DNA of 11,245 bases from a virus (lineage: Duplodnaviria; Heunggongvirae; Uroviricota; Caudoviricetes): IMG/VR virus record IMGVR_UViG_2740892230_000007; one strand, 5' to 3'. The notes beneath the pieces are model-generated. The model made no database searches, was not told the DNA's origin, and worked only from the letters and a program-made list of their open reading frames with translations. Below, piece by piece: positions 1-6,401 of the stretch. The stretch's first letter is position 1, and each line of letters begins with the position of its first letter. Position numbers and translations under genes: made by a program.

Positions 1-38
1 CGCTGAACGGGATTATTTCATCCTCAGAGAACGGTTGA
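1..38 (+). CDS. Rz1: Rz1 o-spanin, C-terminal fragment embedded in Rz in the +1 frame (copy A)
   Basis: Frame starting at position 3 gives LNGIISSSENG* (stop 36-38), matching the lambda Rz1 C-terminus (...DWQTPLNGIISPSERG). Embedded-gene arrangement is typical of Rz/Rz1. Confidence 0.75.
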   Translation, partial: LNGIISSSENG

Positions 39-127
39 TGACAATGCAGAAGCAGGTGGAAGGGGCACAGGACTATATCCGCACTCAGTGTACTAAGCAG
101 GCTTTTTATTATCCGGAGGATGTATGA
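1..127 (+). CDS. Rz: Rz i-spanin, C-terminal fragment (copy A; 5' end lies outside the window)
   Basis: Reading from position 2 gives ...AERDYFILRERLMTMQKQVEGAQDYIRTQCTKQAFYYPEDV*, matching my recollection of the lambda Rz C-terminus (...ADTAERDYFTLRERLITMQKQLEGTQKYINEQCR). Stop TGA at 125-127. Confidence 0.8.
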   Translation, partial: AERDYFILRERLMTMQKQVEGAQDYIRTQCTKQAFYYPEDV

Positions 128-348
128 AGAAATTACAGGTAACGGTAAAACCTTTTCAGGGAACAATTCCGTTCCGTGTTTTGCAACATGGCCGTGTTCT
201 GCTTGAAGAGGTGTTCAGAGGTAAATGCACTGAATGTTATTCACGAACATATGAAGTGAATGCCACGCATGAAGAATTCACCGTTGAGTGTGTGATGAAT
301 ACTGATAAATGCCGAATGGTATCCGCTGAATTACAGCCAGTGTGTTGA
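124..348 (+). CDS. Hypothetical small protein, 74 aa, five Cys (CTEC...C...C...C); cargo ORF downstream of Rz
   Basis: ORF 124..348. ATG at 124-126 overlaps the Rz stop (ATGA); GGAGG at 115-119. Lies in a ~270-bp segment absent from the paralogous copy B, where Rz is followed directly by the conserved block. No family recognised. Confidence 0.45.
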   Translation: MKKLQVTVKPFQGTIPFRVLQHGRVLLEEVFRGKCTECYSRTYEVNATHEEFTVECVMNTDKCRMVSAELQPVC

Positions 349-390
349 GCGACCTTATTATCCATGCGCGGTATTGTCGCCGTATTCCTG

Positions 391-479
391 CATTAACAGA
401 GACCGCAGCCCGACAGGGAGACTCCTCTGCGCGAGTGTGCGGGGATAATCAAAAACGATACACACCGGGGTTTACCGCG
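391..479. repeat. Conserved apparently non-coding block, copy A (89-bp core identical to 1107-1195; wider homology ~364-539)
   Basis: Letter-by-letter comparison of 391-479 with 1107-1195 shows identity; flanks are more diverged. No convincing ORF with a start codon and RBS on either strand. Confidence 0.6.
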
Positions 480-540
480 TAAACGGAGCGCGGCGTTCTC
501 CCCTCATGGTCGCCCGTCCGGTGCGATGGTGGAAGAAACT

Positions 541-716
541 GGAATCTGTTCAATAAAAAAACTGCCGTGTTGGAGTCACAGCAGTAATGTACTGATTGGG
601 TAGAAGATTATTATTGTTATGCTTTATTTTTATTCTATATGGCTGATTATTTCAATTCGGAATTAATACAGCTAATGTCTGTGATTTTTTATAAATTCAG
701 CAATATAAAGAAATAG
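541..716. other. AT-rich island (~176 bp) between the conserved block and the YlcI-like gene of copy A; absent from copy B
   Basis: Visibly AT-rich against GC-rich surroundings. In copy B the conserved block (ends ~1255) abuts the YlcI-like stop (1263) with no such insert. Confidence 0.5.
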
Positions 717-875
717 TTATATGAACAGCCATCGCAGAGCATACTGTGTATCATTCTTTTTTATAGTCAACTGACGGGCATATTTTATGTCTGCTGCCAG
801 CTCCCGGCGGCAAGATTCAATGACCCACGCAGAAAAATTTTCTGAACCTTTCTGGTCAAGAGCGATGTTAATTTG
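717..875 (-). CDS. YlcI/YnfO-like small prophage protein, C-terminal portion (copy 1; N-terminus lost in the N gap)
   Basis: Minus-strand translation after the gap: QINIALDQKGSENFSAWVIESCRRELAADIKYARQLTIKKNDTQYALRWLFI*. Paralogous to the complete 66-aa ORF at 1263-1463 (shared QINIAL..KGS.NFSAWVIE.CRR.L core) but with a different C-terminus. Confidence 0.55.
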   Translation of the reverse strand, partial: QINIALDQKGSENFSAWVIESCRRELAADIKYARQLTIKKNDTQYALRWLFI

Positions 876-885
876 NNNNNNNNNN
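876..885. other. Assembly gap (10 N), joining a YlcI-like gene to the middle of an Rz gene
   Basis: Run of N; flanks are unrelated gene fragments on opposite strands. Confidence 0.95.
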
Positions 886-1008
886 TCAACGCCACCTGCT
901 CCGGTACCGTGCGTGAAGCCACCGGCACCTCCGGCGTGGATAATGCAACCGGCCCCCGACTGGCAGACACCGCTGAACGGGATTATTTCATCCTCAGAGA
1001 ACGGTTGA
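886..1008 (+). CDS. Rz1: Rz1 o-spanin, C-terminal fragment embedded in Rz (copy B)
   Basis: +1-frame translation ...CVKPPAPPAWIMQPAPDWQTPLNGIISSSENG* matches lambda Rz1 (...CVKPPPPPAWIMQPPPDWQTPLNGIISPSERG). Confidence 0.8.
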   Translation, partial: STPPAPVPCVKPPAPPAWIMQPAPDWQTPLNGIISSSENG

Positions 1009-1070
1009 TGACAATGCAGAAGCAGCTGGAAGGGGCACAGGACTATATCCGCACTCAGTGCCTGAACTAA
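886..1070 (+). CDS. Rz: Rz i-spanin, C-terminal fragment (copy B; 5' end lost in the N gap)
   Basis: ...VREATGTSGVDNATGPRLADTAERDYFILRERLMTMQKQLEGAQDYIRTQCLN*. Positions 971-1060 match 1-90 with one mismatch; C-terminus differs from copy A. Confidence 0.8.
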
Positions 1071-1106
1071 GTTTTGCTGATGCGCCGTATCGTCGCTGTA
1101 TTCCCT

Positions 1107-1195
1107 CATTAACAGAGACCGCAGCCCGACAGGGAGACTCCTCTGCGCGAGTGTGCGGGGATAATCAAAAACGATACACACCGGGGTTTACCGCG
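1107..1195. repeat. Conserved apparently non-coding block, copy B (wider homology ~1080-1255)
   Basis: Identical to 391-479. Confidence 0.6.
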
Positions 1196-1262
1196 TTAAC
1201 GGAGCGCGGCGTTGTCCCCTCATAGTCGCCTGTCCGGTGCGATGGTGGAAGAAACCGAACGT

Positions 1263-1463
1263 TCATTTCTCGTTATTTGTCATGCTGGCCGGGCGCAGAT
1301 GCGTTGCATCTGTTGCCAGCCTTCTCCTGCAGGCTTCAATAACCCACGCTGAAAAGTTACCGGACCCTTTATGCTCAAGGGCGATGTTGATCTGTTCAAT
1401 TATGTGATTGGGGAAACGGATATTGCGGGTTGTGGTTCTGCGGGTCCGGTTTTTCGATGACAT
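1263..1463 (-). CDS. YlcI/YnfO family (DUF3950-like) small prophage protein, 66 aa
   Basis: Complete minus-strand ORF MSSKNRTRRTTTRNIRFPNHIIEQINIALEHKGSGNFSAWVIEACRRRLATDATHLRPASMTNNEK. Resembles, from memory, the small YlcI/YnfO proteins found between Rz and the terminase small subunit homolog in E. coli prophages DLP12 and Qin. Family name is recalled, not computed. Confidence 0.6.
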   Translation of the reverse strand: MSSKNRTRRTTTRNIRFPNHIIEQINIALEHKGSGNFSAWVIEACRRRLATDATHLRPASMTNNEK

Positions 1464-1491
1464 TTTCTTTCCTCTGGTGACAAGTTATATG

Positions 1492-1563
1492 ACGGGGATT
1501 TTACATGGCTGAGCTTCGTACACTCCAGAGCAGAATCAAAACTCTGAATACCCGGCGGGTGAA
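1492..1563. repeat. Left copy of a diverged direct repeat flanking the N gap (pairs with 1574-1645); holds an alternative 5' end of the HNH gene (ATG 1505, MAELRTLQSRIKTLNTRRV)
   Basis: 1492-1563 aligns to 1574-1645 at offset 82 with about 8 mismatches. Confidence 0.8.
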
Positions 1564-1573
1564 NNNNNNNNNN
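1564..1573. other. Assembly gap (10 N) between overlapping, non-identical segments
   Basis: Run of N flanked by ~72-bp near-identical direct repeats. Confidence 0.95.
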
Positions 1574-1586
1574 GCGAGGATTTTAC

Positions 1587-1818
1587 ATGGCTGTGCTTCG
1601 TACGTTACCGGGCAGAATCAAAACTCTGAATACCCGGCGGGTGAATGTCCTGAAGGGTGAACAGCGTCGGGTCAGTGGCAGTGCCCGGGTTTCCCTCAAG
1701 CGTCGTATCTGGCTGAGGGATGCCGGGCAGTGCTGTCTCTGTGGTCGTGTGGTTGACCTCTGTGACAGTGAACTCGATCACCGAATTGCACTTCAGTTCG
1801 GTGGTGGTAATGAGGAGA
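1587..1818 (+). CDS. HNH endonuclease, N-terminal ~77 codons (3' end lost in the N gap at 1819)
   Basis: MAVLRTLPGRIKTLNTRRV...CCLCGRVVDLCDSELDHRIALQFGGGNEE: a Cys pair followed by DH and GG-N, as in HNH nucleases. GAGGA at 1576-1580 before ATG 1587. Position beside cos and the terminase genes fits the known terminase-associated HNH proteins. Confidence 0.7.
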
Positions 1819-1828
1819 NNNNNNNNNN
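1819..1828. other. Assembly gap (10 N) truncating the HNH gene
   Basis: Run of N; downstream sequence is non-coding and runs into the cos region. Confidence 0.95.
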
Positions 1829-1879
1829 GACTACATTGAAAATGATAACCATTATCATTTTTGCGGGTCCTCCTGGTGG

Positions 1880-2093
1880 GGTGGGCCTGAACACGGGGCG
1901 GACGGCGCGGGAAAAGGCGCATTTTTGTGATTTTATCGTCATCATCATCATTAGCGTAACTTGTTGTTTTTAATGTGTTTAGCATTAAAAAGATGATGAT
2001 TGTGGTTGATTTTTGTTCGACATCTTTATATGGCGGCATTTCTTTACAAAAAAAGAGCCACTTTTGTTCAGCGGTTTATGTGGAGGGATGTGA
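1880..2093. other. Candidate cos region (cosN-like core ~1893-1911, then repeat-rich cosB-like region)
   Basis: acggggcggacggcgcggg at 1893-1911 resembles lambda cosN as I recall it (ACGGGGCGGCGACCTCGCGGG). Downstream cgtcat...aactt...tgttttta also recalls the lambda cosB side. CAT/ATG triplet repeats at 1935-1947 (atcatcatcatca) and 1992-2000 (gatgatgat, inverted); A-tract at 2049-2055. Sits directly upstream of the terminase small subunit. Confidence 0.5.
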
Positions 2094-2570
2094 ATGGACG
2101 GCGAGCTGAAAAATATGAAGTTAAATATTAATCAACTGGCAGCCATTTCAGGTCTGCACCGGCAGACTGTTGCCGCCAGAATGGCGGATGTTCCTCTTGC
2201 ACCAGGTAGTAATGAAAAGAAAAAAATGTATCTCCTGACGGATTTGATTATTTCGTTGCTGGAAAAACCACCGGCTTCCGAAGATGAAGAGATGAACCCA
2301 CATGATCGGAAGGCATGGTATCAGTCCGAGCGCGAGCGTCTTAAATTTCAGCATGAAACTGTTCAGCTTGTGCCAGTCAGTGATGTCAGGCGGTCCTTTT
2401 CTGTCGTGGTGAAAGCGATAGTTCAGGTACTGGAAACCTGGCCTGACCGGCTGGAGAGGGACAGGGGGTGGACCGCATCACAACTGAATGAAGTACAGAT
2501 TGTGGTTGATGAGATCCGCGATACACTGGAAAAGGCAGTCATTGACTGTTGTGATGAGGCCGATATGTGA
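2094..2570 (+). CDS. Terminase small subunit (helix-turn-helix DNA-binding N-terminus)
   Basis: ORF 2094..2570, 158 aa. N-terminal LNINQLAAISGLHRQTVAARM looks like an HTH. GGAGGG at 2080-2085. Stop overlaps the GTG start of the large subunit (ATGTGA). Alternative start ATG 2115. Confidence 0.7.
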   Translation: MDGELKNMKLNINQLAAISGLHRQTVAARMADVPLAPGSNEKKKMYLLTDLIISLLEKPPASEDEEMNPHDRKAWYQSERERLKFQHETVQLVPVSDVRRSFSVVVKAIVQVLETWPDRLERDRGWTASQLNEVQIVVDEIRDTLEKAVIDCCDEADM

Positions 2571-4690
2571 ATCAGGTGAACGAGAGCCATAGCCGCGCAT
2601 CCGATATCTGGCGCGAAGTGGCCTCGCTGTTTCGCCCACCCAGCCGGTTACCAGTAGCGGAAGCCATCAGGCGTTATATGCGGGTACCACGGGGAGCCAA
2701 TACTTCCGGTCCGTGGGAGTCATCGCTGACGCCCTATATGATTGACCCCATTAATACATTATCAGCCCGTGAATATGACGCGGTGGTGTTTGTGGGACCT
2801 GCGCGAACCGGGAAAACCGAAGGGCTGATTGATGGCTGGATTGTGTACGGCATCATCTGTGATCCGGCGGATATGCTGGTGGTGCAGATGACTGAGACGA
2901 AGGCGCGTGAGCATTCCAGAACGCGTCTTTCCAGAACGTTTCGCCACAGTCCGGAGGTCAGCAAGCGCCTCAGTCCTTCCCGTAATGACAACAACGTCCA
3001 CGATAAAATGTTTCTTGACGGCTCCTTCCTGAAGATTGGCTGGCCGTCGATCACTGTATTTTCTTCTTCGGATTACCGTCGTGTGGCGCTGACGGATTAT
3101 GACCGTTTCCCTGAAAACGTGGACGGGGAAGGGGATGCCTTCACCCTGGCATCAAAGCGTACCACCACCTTTATGTCCTCGGGGATGACCTTGGTCGAGA
3201 GTTCGCCGGGGCGGGATATCACTGACACCAAATGGCGCTGTGGCGGCGCACATGAGGCACCGCCAACAACGGGGATCCTGTCACTGTATAACCGGGGAGA
3301 CCGCCGCCGGTGGTACTGGCCGTGTCCGCACTGCGGGGAATATTTTCAGCCGGTGATGGATAACATGACCGGATACCGGAATAACCCGGATTTTGTGGCT
3401 GCCGGTCAGGCTGCCCGTCTGATGTGTCCGCATTGTCGCGGGCTGATTGCCCCTGAGCAGAAACGCGAACTGAATAACAAAGGGATCTGGCTTCGTGAAG
3501 GTGAACGGGCGGTGGCGGACGGCAGTATCACCGGAACACCACGAAATTCCAGGATTGCGTCATTCTGGATGGAGGGGCCGGCTGCGGCGTTTCAGACCTG
3601 GGAACAACTGATTTTTAAACTGCTGGCGGCAGAAGAAGAGTATGAGCGAACCGGCAGTGAAGAGACCCTGAAAGCGGTGGTGAACACCGATATCGGACGC
3701 CCCTATCTGCCCCGTTCAGCCACGGAACAGCGTAAAAGTGAACTGCTTGAACAGCGTGCCGAGCCGTTTCCCCGGCGATCTGTGCCGGATGGTGTGCGTT
3801 TTATTGAGGCAACGGTTGACGTACAGGGCGGTAAAAATCGCCGTTTTGTTGTGCAGATCACCGGATACGGAGAGCAGGGGGAACGCTGGATTGTTGATCG
3901 CTATAACATCCGGCATTCACTGCGCTGCAGTCCCAACGGTGAAAGTCTGCCGGTTGATCCGGCGGCATATCCGGAGGACTGGGATTTGTTGCTGACGGAT
4001 GTGTTCCATAAAACATGGCCGCTGGCTTCTGATCCGGATGTGCGCATGCGTCTGATGGCCATGGCGGTGGATACGGGAGGGGAAGCCGGGGTGACAGATA
4101 ACGCCTATCGTTTCTGGCGTCGTTGCCGGAGTGACGGACTGGGCAACAGGGTGTTTCTGTTCAAGGGGGATGGACTTCGCCGTGACAGGCTGATTAACCG
4201 TACCTTCCCGGATAATACCGGCAGAAGTGCCCGCCGTGCCAGAGCCAGTGGCGATGTCGCGCTGTGGCTGGTTCAGACGGATGCGTTTAAGGACCGTGTA
4301 AATAATGCCCTGTGGCGTGACACACCAGGGCCGAACTATATCCACTTTCCCGACTGGCTGGGGCGATGGTTTTACGATGAGCTGACCTATGAAGAGCGCG
4401 GCAGTGACGGAAAATGGCGAAAACCGGGCAGGGGAGCTAACGAGGCGTTTGACCTGCTGGTTTATGCGGATGCGCTTGCCGTTCTGCATGGTTACGAAAA
4501 GATCCGCTGGCCCTCCGCACCGGACTGGGCACAGCGGGAAACGTGGCTCGTCTTCCCGCAGGAGCGTTCTGGTGAAACGGTATCCCCGGAACTGACGGCC
4601 GGGGCAGAAAAACGCCGTCGCCGGAAGAAAAAACTGCGGACGGAGCGTGCGGAAGATAATCCATGGATAACATCAGGAGGCTGGTTGTGA
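2567..4690 (+). CDS. Terminase large subunit, lambda gpA family
   Basis: 707 aa, GTG start at 2567 overlapping the small subunit stop. Walker A-like VFVGPARTGKTE; CPHCGEY and CPHCRG Cys pairs and NKGIWLREG mirror lambda gpA (ACPHCGEEQYLKF, EKTGIWTRDG) as recalled. Confidence 0.9.
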   Translation: MNQVNESHSRASDIWREVASLFRPPSRLPVAEAIRRYMRVPRGANTSGPWESSLTPYMIDPINTLSAREYDAVVFVGPARTGKTEGLIDGWIVYGIICDPADMLVVQMTETKAREHSRTRLSRTFRHSPEVSKRLSPSRNDNNVHDKMFLDGSFLKIGWPSITVFSSSDYRRVALTDYDRFPENVDGEGDAFTLASKRTTTFMSSGMTLVESSPGRDITDTKWRCGGAHEAPPTTGILSLYNRGDRRRWYWPCPHCGEYFQPVMDNMTGYRNNPDFVAAGQAARLMCPHCRGLIAPEQKRELNNKGIWLREGERAVADGSITGTPRNSRIASFWMEGPAAAFQTWEQLIFKLLAAEEEYERTGSEETLKAVVNTDIGRPYLPRSATEQRKSELLEQRAEPFPRRSVPDGVRFIEATVDVQGGKNRRFVVQITGYGEQGERWIVDRYNIRHSLRCSPNGESLPVDPAAYPEDWDLLLTDVFHKTWPLASDPDVRMRLMAMAVDTGGEAGVTDNAYRFWRRCRSDGLGNRVFLFKGDGLRRDRLINRTFPDNTGRSARRARASGDVALWLVQTDAFKDRVNNALWRDTPGPNYIHFPDWLGRWFYDELTYEERGSDGKWRKPGRGANEAFDLLVYADALAVLHGYEKIRWPSAPDWAQRETWLVFPQERSGETVSPELTAGAEKRRRRKKKLRTERAEDNPWITSGGWL

Positions 4691-4899
4691 GCACAGAAGA
4701 AGCCAGAGAAATGATACAGCGGTACCGTGAAGCGGAAATGGCCGTACTGGAGGGGAAGTCTGTCACCTTCAACGGACAGCAACTGACGCTGGAAAGCCTT
4801 TCTCAGATCCGCGCCGGACGTCAGGAGTGGGAACGCAGGCTTGCCGCGATGGTGAGCCGCAGGCGGGGAAAACCAGGATTTAAACTGGCGAGGTTTTAA
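4687..4899 (+). CDS. W: Head completion / head-tail joining protein, gpW family
   Basis: Ends ...RRRGKPGFKLARF, like lambda gpW (...RRRGPAGFYV). Preferred start GTG 4687 (AGGAGG at 4674-4679, overlaps the terminase stop as GTGA); the ORF track's ATG 4663 is an alternative. Confidence 0.75.
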   Translation: MSTEEAREMIQRYREAEMAVLEGKSVTFNGQQLTLESLSQIRAGRQEWERRLAAMVSRRRGKPGFKLARF

Positions 4900-6401
4900 T
4901 GGCAATTATTGATGATGTGATAGGCGTGTTTTCCCCCGGCTGGAAAGCAGCCAGACTGCGTTCAAGGGCGTTAATCATGGCCTATGAGGCGGTGAAACCG
5001 ACCCGGACACATAAAGCCCGGCGGGAAAATCGCTCTGCTGATCAGCTCAGTAAATACGGTGCGGTTTCCCTGCGGGAGCAGGCCCGTTTTCTGGATATCA
5101 ATCATGACCTGGTGATTGGTGTGTTTGACAAGCTGGAAGAGCGGGTGATTGGTGCCAGGGGAATTATTGTGGAGCCTCAGCCATTACGAAAAAACGGGGA
5201 AATGGCGGCAGAGCTGGCTGCGGATATCCGCCGGTTGTGGGCTGAGTGGTCCGTGAGTCCGGATGTGACAGGGCAGTATACCCGTCCCGTGCTTGAACGT
5301 TTACTGCTGCGGACCTGGCTGCGGGATGGTGAAGTGTTTGCGCAGATGGTCAGTGGTGCGGGAAACGGTCTGGAACGGACGGCGGGAGTGCCATTCTGGC
5401 TTGAGGCGATGGAGCCGGATTTTGTTCCCATGCGCACTGATGAATCCGCCGGACTGAATCAGGGGGTTTTTCTTGATGAGTGGGGAAGACCGAAAAAATA
5501 TCTGGTTTATAAAAATTATCCGGTCAGCGGCCGGCAGAGTGATACGAAAGAAATCGCTGCCGGAAAAATGATCCACCTGAAGTTCACTCGTCGTCTGCAT
5601 CAGACGCGAGGCTCATCCATGTTATCGGGGGTGCTGATACGGATCAGTGCCCTTAAGGAGTATGAGGATGCGGAACTCACTGCGGCGCGTATTGCCGCGG
5701 CGCTGGGACTGTATATCCGTAAAGGTGACGGGCAGGACTATGAAGAGCCGGGGATCAAAGAAACCGACCGGGAAGTCCATATCACCCCGGGTATTATTTA
5801 TGACGATTTGCGCAAGGGCGAGGATATCGGCATGGTCAAATCAGACCGTCCCAATCCCAACCTTGAAACTTTCCGCAACGGCCAGTTGCGTGCAGTGGCA
5901 GCGGGCAGTCGTCTGAGTTTTTCCAGTGCGGCGCGTAACTATAACGGCACCTACAGTGCCCAGCGGCAGGAGCTGGTCGAGTCCACGGATGGTTACCTGA
6001 TCCTGCAGGACTGTTTTATTGGCGCGGTAACCCGTCCGGTGTACCGGACATGGCTGAATATGGTGGTTGCGGCAGGTCTGCTGAAAATTCCGGCGGATGT
6101 GGAGATGAAAACGCTATATAACGCGACGTATTCCGGTCCGGTGATGCCGTGGATCGACCCGGTTAAGGAAGCTGAAGCCTGGAGAATTCAGATCCGGGGT
6201 GGTGCAGCGACAGAATCTGACTGGGTGCGTGCCGGCGGGCGCAATCCGGATGAGGTCAAACGTCGCCGCAAGGCTGAAATTGATGAAAACAGCAGACTGG
6301 GGCTGGTCTTTGATACTGACCCCGTCAACGACAAAGGAGGCAACAGTGCCGGAACTGAACAACAGCGTCAGCAGGCCACCGACAGCCAGCATGAAGAATA
6401 A
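4899..6401 (+). CDS. Portal protein, lambda gpB family
   Basis: 500-aa ORF directly after W (TAATG overlap), in the position and of the size expected for a lambda-type portal, between W and the prohead protease. Confidence 0.85.
   Translation: MAIIDDVIGVFSPGWKAARLRSRALIMAYEAVKPTRTHKARRENRSADQLSKYGAVSLREQARFLDINHDLVIGVFDKLEERVIGARGIIVEPQPLRKNGEMAAELAADIRRLWAEWSVSPDVTGQYTRPVLERLLLRTWLRDGEVFAQMVSGAGNGLERTAGVPFWLEAMEPDFVPMRTDESAGLNQGVFLDEWGRPKKYLVYKNYPVSGRQSDTKEIAAGKMIHLKFTRRLHQTRGSSMLSGVLIRISALKEYEDAELTAARIAAALGLYIRKGDGQDYEEPGIKETDREVHITPGIIYDDLRKGEDIGMVKSDRPNPNLETFRNGQLRAVAAGSRLSFSSAARNYNGTYSAQRQELVESTDGYLILQDCFIGAVTRPVYRTWLNMVVAAGLLKIPADVEMKTLYNATYSGPVMPWIDPVKEAEAWRIQIRGGAATESDWVRAGGRNPDEVKRRRKAEIDENSRLGLVFDTDPVNDKGGNSAGTEQQRQQATDSQHEE

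Follow-up and report, generated by a model that had tools for sequence, protein, structure and literature searches.

The packaging genes and the scaffold around them

The window, by which is meant the whole stretch of 11,245 bp analysed here, is a scaffold in which two runs of 10 N, at 1564–1573 and 1819–1828, connect at least three pieces of contig. From 1829 rightward it carries the head module of a lambdoid prophage, in which the genes for the small and large terminase subunits (TerS and TerL) are followed by a portal gene of the lambda family and then by a fused ClpP protease-capsid gene. All four are full-length in the window. TerS is of the DUF1441 type and TerL of the gpA family; the latter covers its ATPase and endonuclease profiles (PF05876 and PF20454) essentially end to end and would presumably be both the ATPase and the endonuclease that nicks cosN. 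The features discussed below are as follows (carets mark the borders of the cosN core, where the nicks are predicted).

1819–1828, no strand: scaffold join of 10 N, outside cos; the pieces to its left and right differ in origin
1838–1856, no strand: conserved palindrome GAAAATGATAACCATTATC, 8 bp left of cosQ; Fur-box-like, no defined cos subsite
1865–1871, plus: cosQ GGGTCCT, predicted packaging-termination signal; 7/7 identical to lambda cosQ
1893–1911, plus: cosN, predicted terminase nicking site, ACG^GGGCGGACGG^CGCGGG; flanks and left half identical to lambda
1896–1905, plus: likely 5' cohesive end GGGCGGACGG, 10 nt, from the spacing of the conserved CG flanks; alternative of 12 nt at 1896–1907
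1912–1935, plus: cosN-cosB spacer AAAAGGCGCATTTTTGTGATTTTA; position comparable to lambda I2
1936–1951, plus: R3-like predicted TerS site TCGTCATCATCATCAT, +41 to +56 from the left nick
1957–1969, minus: IHF-like site AAACAACAAGTTA between R3 and R2; counterpart of lambda I1
1989–2002, minus: R2-like site, inverted relative to R3, AAAGATGATGATTG on the plus strand; minus-strand copies in relatives
2016–2027, plus: R1-like site TTCGACATCTTT; plus-strand copies in Fels-1 and Chris1
2094–2570, plus: TerS, 158 aa, Pfam DUF1441 (PF07278, E = 5e-49; PHROG 141 'terminase small subunit', E = 2e-64)
2567–4690, plus: TerL, 707 aa, gpA family (PF05876, E = 2e-81; PF20454, E = 6e-84)

A distant kinship between TerS and lambda gpNu1 was sought in several ways. 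BLASTP gave no alignment between the two, and searches of solved structures (PDB), with the single sequence as well as with a 13-sequence profile, did not find gpNu1 and returned chance-level matches only. A direct comparison by hhalign gave a weak, collinear match (E = 1.2e-3, probability 19%), in which the N-terminus is set against the winged helix-turn-helix. The AlphaFold2 single-sequence model of TerS (mean pLDDT 66) matched only generic helical bundles when compared with the PDB by Foldseek (E > 0.8) and was discarded.

The stretch between the second join and TerS (1829–2093) is 100% identical in E. coli 55989, where it has no annotation and is flanked by the Rz lysis gene on one side and by the genes for DUF1441 and TerL on the other. 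Of 5,426 complete E. coli genomes, 760 contain DNA matching the cos region, 401 of them over at least 80% of its length. The DNA of 1829–2600 is 95–98% identical to VT1-Sakai (Sp15) and to several long-tailed Stx2 prophages; for Sp15/VT1-Sakai and the long-tailed Stx phages Stx2_14040, CP-1639 and 1720a-02 together, identity in the region ranges from 92 to 98%.

The join at 1819–1828 deserves separate mention. A previous reading of the window from its sequence alone (the sequence-only reading) had noted this gap about 70 bp upstream of the presumed packaging site and had speculated that it arose from reads ending at cos. The position is correct, the gap being 67 bp left of the predicted nick, but the proposed link is not, since the piece to the left is part of an HK97-type module. 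That piece (1574–1818) holds the 5' part of an HNH endonuclease gene (PHROG 589), with a YlcI gene beside it; where the HNH gene occurs in complete genomes, another TerS and TerL, of the HK97 type, come after it, and no complete E. coli genome has the HNH piece joined to the cos piece. Right of the gap, the true leftward continuation, seen in E. coli 55989 and in six identical IMG/VR contigs, reads ...CCGGTGCGATGGTGGAAGAAACCG on the Rz side. Among related IMG/VR contigs the nearest contig end lies 193 bp upstream of cosQ, and none ends at cos. Because no related contig ends within 193 bp of cosQ and the flanking piece is foreign, a contig break caused by reads ending at cos was rejected. Judged from these comparisons, 1819–1828 is an artificial join to a fragment of a different, HK97-type prophage and is unrelated to cos.

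The same holds for the wider left side. The stretch 1263–1818, with a YlcI/YnfO-family gene on the minus strand and the 5' part of the HNH endonuclease gene, has a pair of genes characteristic of packaging modules of the HK97 type. The cos and terminase genes of that module are outside the window, and the stretch comes from another prophage than the right side. Across the other run of N (1564–1573), the segments 1500–1563 and 1584–1647 are near-duplicate HNH gene starts (tttacatggctgAgcttcgtac... and tttacatggctgTgcttcgtac...). These overlapping, slightly different copies indicate that the run joins paralogous pieces and spans no missing sequence, and that the scaffold is a concatenation of repeat-broken contigs.

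Subsites of the predicted cos compared with lambda

The sequence-only reading had placed a candidate cos site at 1880–2093, just upstream of TerS. The site itself held up, but its left limit has to be moved, with cosQ at 1865–1871 and the conserved palindrome at 1838–1856 lying further left. The resemblance of 1893–1911 to the lambda cosN core was borne out letter by letter: the exact string there is acggggcggacggcgcggg (that is, ACGGGGCGGACGGCGCGGG), lambda has ACG^GGGCGGCGACCT^CGCGGG, and the two have in common ACGGGGCGG (9/9), which includes ACG and the left half GGGCGG, and CGCGGG (6/6). Where the likeness stops is in the length of the core, as there are 10 bp between the flanks and not 12.

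The 7-bp cosQ is a conserved element that acts in termination (PMC4669245). As a composite, the pattern GGGTCCT-N15-30-ACGGGGCGG-N0-6-CGCGG has one match in the 11,245-bp window and none in 200 dinucleotide-preserving shuffles. Alignment to lambda cos had been named by the sequence-only reading as a check of its proposal, and the block directly left of cosN, ATGATAACCATTATCA...GCGGGTCCT, does align locally to the lambda right end ATGATAATCATTATCA.CTTTACGGGTCCT. The score is 38, whereas 500 shuffles reached at most 31 and 138 segments from elsewhere in the window at most 28. The left nick is 31 bp from the start of cosQ here, 30 in lambda and 29 in the relatives with 12-nt cores. Lambda-like cos sites have been defined, among other features, by the cosN left half GGGCGG with CG dinucleotides at both nicks, by a 7-bp cosQ about 30 bp upstream of the nick, and by three R sites (R2 inverted) with an IHF site between R3 and R2 (PMC4669245). 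The first of these is found at 1893–1911, the second at 1865–1871, 31 bp from the predicted nick, and the third is matched by R-like and IHF-like sequences. The definition also includes a gpA-family TerL and a Nu1-like winged-helix TerS, both encoded directly downstream; here TerL is of that family, and TerS is assigned as a small terminase from PHROG 141 and from its position.

What is the palindrome to the left of cosQ? Its inverted arms are at 1839–1848 and 1852–1861, and the same palindromic element adjoins cosQ in lambda, mEp043 and Kp4865-4. Compared with GATAATGATAATCATTATC, the Fur-box consensus of E. coli, GAAAATGATAACCATTATC has two mismatches, with 0.01 matches of this quality expected by chance. 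The palindrome is absent in LLS, in PhiR40_1 and in about 17 IMG/VR loci, and from these absences the element at 1838–1856 is probably dispensable for cos.

In lambda, cosB has the plan R3-I1-R2-R1, in which R2 is inverted and IHF bends the DNA between it and R3 (PMC9026076, PMC4669245), and this plan has also been described for phi80, 21 and Gifsy-1 (PMC9026076). In the window, cosN is followed by a spacer whose GGC and TTTTT are conserved out to a cyanophage, and then by the R-like and IHF-like sequences in the lambda order. The earlier suggestion that the downstream sequence resembles lambda cosB thus stands for the architecture but not for the sequence, as the R sites themselves differ from those of lambda. 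Other observations of that reading were sound. The CAT/ATG repeats in both orientations that it described are present as a 12-nt inverted pair, ATCATCATCATT (1941–1952) and AAAGATGATGAT (1989–2000), which is 92% complementary. (An inverted pair as good as this turns up in 3.7% of dinucleotide shuffles, so that the pair alone is weak evidence, yet it is conserved in relatives.) Likewise, the A-tracts that it saw in the following 150 bp or so correspond to six A/T tracts, at 1912–15, 1922–26, 1931–34, 1967–71, 1987–91 and 2010–14, the first three of them about 10 bp apart.

The R-like sites share the motif TCRWCATCWT, which has five matches in the whole window, all in 1936–2026 and in the order forward, reverse, forward: three overlapping forward copies constitute R3 (1936–1951), one reverse copy R2 (1990–1999) and one forward copy R1 (2017–2026). 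Since the motif was derived from the window itself, its enrichment there is circular, and it is the recurrence in relatives, described below, that constitutes the independent evidence. The IHF-like site has one mismatch to WATCAANNNNTTR and is not significant alone (8 matches were found in comparison to 6.9 expected). It was retained because its position is conserved: an IHF-like match on the same strand, at +59 to +64 from the left nick, occurs in 13 of 15 cos regions, those of the window and of 12 of the 14 relatives, and five of these matches are perfect.

Between R1 and the start of TerS, at 2051–2069, there is a second, weaker copy of the cosN-proximal spacer (AAAAGAGCCACTTTTGT compared to AAAAGGCGCATTTTTGT, 76% identity) and of TTTTGTTC. 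The surrounding stretch of about 40 bp is missing from the shorter cosB of the CP-1639 type.

Related cos regions and their TerS proteins

A tblastn search with TerS yielded 58 phage records, and the cos regions of 14 relatives and of lambda were assembled. The TerS proteins of the relatives have 33–57% amino-acid identity to that of the window. All assembled cos regions share a cosQ-like heptamer, a CG-GGG left junction and, to the right, the block CGCGG(G/A)A with GGC and TTTTT after it, and the IHF-like site at +59 to +64 is common to them as well, with the strand and the exceptions given above.

For four of the relatives, the ends of the deposited records coincide with the homologous cosN junctions. 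The cdtI record starts with GGGCGGGAGCGT and ends with ...CCACG. In the LLS record a 12-nt 5' end, GGGCGGCGCGCT, is annotated, the cohesive end having been inferred by its authors (PMC12315714). In yong2 the first letters of the record are CGCGGG and the last are the 12-nt core. Cyanophage Cr-LKS3, for which a 9-nt 5' cohesive end has been reported (PMC9303873), has a record that starts GGGCTCGCG^CGCGGAA and ends ...GACGCG. These deposited ends, together with the homology to lambda cos, support the proposal of a lambda-like cos just upstream of TerS. The records closest to the window are all in prophage order, and those of Sp15/VT1-Sakai, Stx2_14040, CP-1639 and 1720a-02 contain no cos annotation. 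In the literature no physical mapping of the cos of this clade was found, and the only matches to the exact core strings were unrelated ones, to G-quadruplexes and primers.

The R motif follows the type of TerS. Six relatives whose TerS has the wing APGSN carry TCRWCATCWT, with a forward copy at +45 to +49 from the left nick; a minus-strand copy is found at +93 to +97 in LLS, yong2, Fels-1, mEp043 and Kp4865-4, and a plus-strand copy at +119 to +123 in Fels-1 and Chris1. In six relatives that have TerS proteins of other types, lambda among them, the cos region lacks the motif. The same linkage is seen at closer range, among 46 IMG/VR loci that have an identical cosQ-cosN 37-mer and a recognisable TerS. 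In these, cosB type and TerS type are perfectly linked, with no mixed cases: 28 combine a TCGTCATCATCAT-type cosB with the wing APGSNEKKK, and 18 a GGCACCATCACC-type cosB with the wing AGGHESNLK. Such pairing is what recognition of cosB by TerS predicts, and the tracking of TerS type by the R motif and the conserved position of the IHF-like site lend substance to the view that these are plausible TerS and bending-protein sites, as the sequence-only reading had put it.

How does the site compare with known systems? With the cos of lambda, which is served by gpNu1 and gpA, it shares cosQ (GGGTCCT), the order R3, IHF site, inverted R2, R1 and TerS gene, a TerL of the gpA family and a similar palindrome just left of cosQ. 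It differs in having 10 bp between the nick flanks instead of 12, in R sequences that are unrelated (TCRWCATCWT here, CGTTTCC-type in lambda), in a DUF1441 TerS that has no BLASTP similarity to gpNu1, and in a head module with a fused ClpP protease-capsid gene. The putative cos sites of Salmonella Fels-1 and Gifsy and of E. coli mEp213, mEp043 and LLS are closer. Their TerS is also of the DUF1441 type (36–57% identity). At offsets equal to those in the window they carry the same flanks around cosN, a spacer with GGC..TTTTT, an R3 with the motif CATCATCAT, an IHF-like site and an R2 in inverted orientation, but there are 12 bp between their flanks and 29 bp between cosQ and the nick, whereas the clade of the window has 10 (or 11) and 31 bp. 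The cos of Cr-LKS3, from a very distant host, is accompanied by a homologous TerS (35% identity). Its cosQ-like heptamer is GGGTCCC, its nick flanks are CG^GGGC and ^CGCGGAA, the reported overhang is shorter than 12 nt (9 nt, PMC9303873), and cosQ is 42 bp from the right nick; its cosB is different, and its 9-nt overhang contrasts with the likely 10 nt here. Closest of all are Sp15/VT1-Sakai, Stx2_14040, CP-1639 and 1720a-02, which share the cosQ-cosN block, except that VT1-Sakai has an 11-bp core and that CP-1639 has another cosB (CACCATCACCACC), paired with another TerS wing.

Gifsy-like and mEp213-like cos sites have been discussed by Feiss and colleagues, and Gifsy-1 is counted as lambda-like (PMC4669245, PMC9026076). 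The kind of site is therefore already known. A cosN survey by Vahanian et al. (2017) reportedly also treats the Gifsy-like and mEp213-like sites. The site in the window is an ordinary member of this well-known kind, save for a cut-site core that is 2 bp shorter than that of lambda. Its unusual points are the 10- or 11-bp core and the apparent compensation between cosQ and cosN; they are modest and would not surprise a specialist.

Interpretation of the site and length of the cohesive end

Taken together, the stretch from about 1865 to 2027 is very probably the cos of a lambdoid E. coli prophage with a head module of the Gifsy/Fels-1/Sp15 type, consisting of cosQ, cosN, the spacer and cosB (R3, IHF site, inverted R2 and R1) and situated directly before the genes for the DUF1441 TerS and the gpA-family TerL. 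The basis for this is sequence homology, the layout of the subsites, the gene context and the link between R motif and TerS; protein binding, the exact nicks and activity of the prophage we infer. By analogy with lambda, TerS dimers would bind the R repeats (TCRWCATCWT) through an N-terminal helix-turn-helix and wing, and IHF would bend the DNA between R3 and R2. This arrangement would anchor TerL, which would introduce staggered nicks at ACG^GGGCGGACGG^CGCGGG and leave a 5' overhang, most likely of 10 nt (GGGCGGACGG, 1896–1905). Packaging would then proceed rightward, and at the next cos on the concatemer cosQ (GGGTCCT) and cosN would trigger the terminating cut. Two other modes of packaging were considered and rejected. 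An HK97-type cos, with a 3' overhang and HNH-assisted cutting, does not fit, as TerL belongs to the gpA family and the HNH fragment (1587–1818) is on a different contig piece. Nor does headful (pac) packaging, as the whole of the gpA ATPase and endonuclease domains is matched by TerL and no part of cosQ-cosN-cosB is missing.

That there is no packaging site here, only an intergenic regulatory region (promoter, operator or terminator) of the late or terminase genes with a chance likeness to cosN, is scarcely credible. The region is AT-rich, intergenic and palindromic, one of its palindromes resembles a Fur-box, and there is one weak terminator-like hairpin on the minus strand (2058–2074). Against this, the promoter and terminator scan found no sigma-70-like promoter in 1400–2600, an Rfam scan of 1–3000 gave no match, the composite cosQ-cosN pattern has a chance expectation of zero (0/200 shuffles), and the homology spans cosQ, cosN and the spacer and reaches both the experimentally studied lambda and a cyanophage with reported ends. 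It is more conceivable, but still improbable, that the site is a relic in a defective prophage, homologous to a functional cos and no longer cut or used, for example because it was inactivated by the shortening of its core. Many of the lambdoid prophages in pathogenic E. coli are defective. The same cos is found beside a 5'-truncated gpA gene in about 21 IMG/VR loci, and between flanks that are otherwise identical the core may measure 7, 10 or 11 bp. Sp15, whose core is the 11-bp one, is listed with a defect in head formation or packaging; its DNA is nevertheless found DNase-protected in particles after induction, at a low level (PMC2669165). In the window, moreover, TerS, TerL, the portal and the protease-capsid fusion are intact in length, and the close relatives 1720a-02 and ASU11 were deposited as phages. 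The 10-bp form is also the majority form (55/69) and is associated with each of two cosB/TerS pairs, both perfectly matched, a pattern that speaks for continuing selection.

How long, then, is the cohesive end? The conserved nick flanks ACG and CGCGG are 10 bp apart in the window, compared with 12 in lambda, and among the 14 relatives the distance from the left CG to the right CGCGG is exactly 12 bp in 10. It is 10 bp in Stx2_14040 and CP-1639, as in the window, and 11 bp in VT1-Sakai; of 69 IMG/VR contigs that contain the upstream 37-mer, 55 show a distance of 10 bp, 13 one of 11 bp and a single contig one of 7 bp. In the clade of the window, cosQ is 31 bp from the left junction, in contrast to 29 bp in the 12-bp group, so that 41 bp separate cosQ from CGCGG in either group; the figure is 42 bp in lambda, VT1-Sakai and Cr-LKS3. 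The loss of 2 bp from the core is thus offset by 2 extra bp between cosQ and cosN, which makes a 10-nt 5' overhang likely. On these comparisons the nicks likely follow the conserved flanks and would give the end GGGCGGACGG, a reading that is favoured over a 12-bp stagger and has a precedent in the 9-nt end reported for Cr-LKS3, which lies between the same flanks. More broadly, and a little short of an even chance, the cohesive end of the clade may really be 10 nt (11 in the Sp15-like copies and 7 in the rare ones) and not the 12 nt of lambda, so that related gpA-type terminases would nick by the sequence of the flanks and have no fixed 12-bp dimer geometry. On such a flank-reading view, and with the same tentativeness, the 2 bp lost from the overhang would be compensated by the 2 bp gained between cosQ and cosN, with the distance from cosQ to cosB held at 41–42 bp.

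Ends of 12 bases belong to the definition of a lambda-like cos (PMC4669245), and here the flanks are 10 bp apart; the sequence can also be read with a 12-nt end and CG on either side. In that case the cos would be the same and the terminase would retain its 12-nt stagger, leaving the overhang GGGCGGACGGCG (1896–1907) or CGGGGCGGACGG (1894–1905), and the 2-bp difference would reside in a flank and not in the cohesive end. We regard this as rather unlikely, even though several observations agree with it. CG dinucleotides are kept beside both nicks (CG^GGGCGGACGGCG^CG), and 10 of 16 positions are rotationally symmetric, the same as in lambda (PMC9026076), compared to 6 of 14 if the end is 10 nt. 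The sequence specificity of TerL nucleases is low, their position being set by TerS-cosB (PMC9026076), and a distance from cosQ to CGCGG that is constant at 41–42 bp, whatever the apparent length of the overhang, is what would be expected if anchored proteins set the nick positions by distance. On the other hand, the 9-nt end reported for Cr-LKS3 spans exactly from CG^GGGC to ^CGCGGAA (PMC9303873), and the nicks there therefore follow the conserved flanks and not a fixed 12-bp stagger. The start of the yong2 record, exactly at CGCGGG, likewise tells against the 12-nt stagger, as does CGCGG(G/A)A being the best-conserved part of the right side across the family.

Variation in length is not restricted to cosN. 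Besides the G/C core of cosN, with its 7, 10 or 11 bp, the CAT units in R3 (1939–1951) vary in number, being four in the window and in most contigs and three in a few (L060, L061 and L065 were compared). From their sequences, both look like slippage-prone repeats inside a functional site.

With the site read as a cos, it would mark the start and end of the packaged genome for a widespread family of E. coli prophages, including relatives of Stx1 and long-tailed Stx2 phages. The region is unannotated in the public records inspected, and its coordinates are thus of use for annotation, for orienting phage genomes and for predicting which terminase packages which satellites or defective prophages. 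The pairing of cosB with TerS predicts two distinct packaging specificities on an identical cosQ-cosN. A 10-bp core, if physically confirmed, would provide the lambda terminase model with a natural example of variable cohesive-end length. If ends of 10 and 11 nt are real, the genome ends of co-resident prophages cannot anneal with one another, which would create a small barrier to recombinant or helper-packaged chromosomes.

A variant arrangement of the locus is seen in positions 2955–4959 of the record IMGVR_UViG_2534681835_000014 (L023) and in about 20 similar loci. These have the same cosQ-cosN and a CATCAT-type cosB in another gene context: a ClpP-capsid fusion gene, cos, a 93-aa ORF, a 5'-truncated gpA gene, the portal and a second ClpP-capsid gene, with the 93-aa ORF and the truncated gpA taking the place of TerS and the full TerL. 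Loci of this type look like packaging modules that have been rearranged or degraded around an intact cos, which might allow a co-resident helper to package them.
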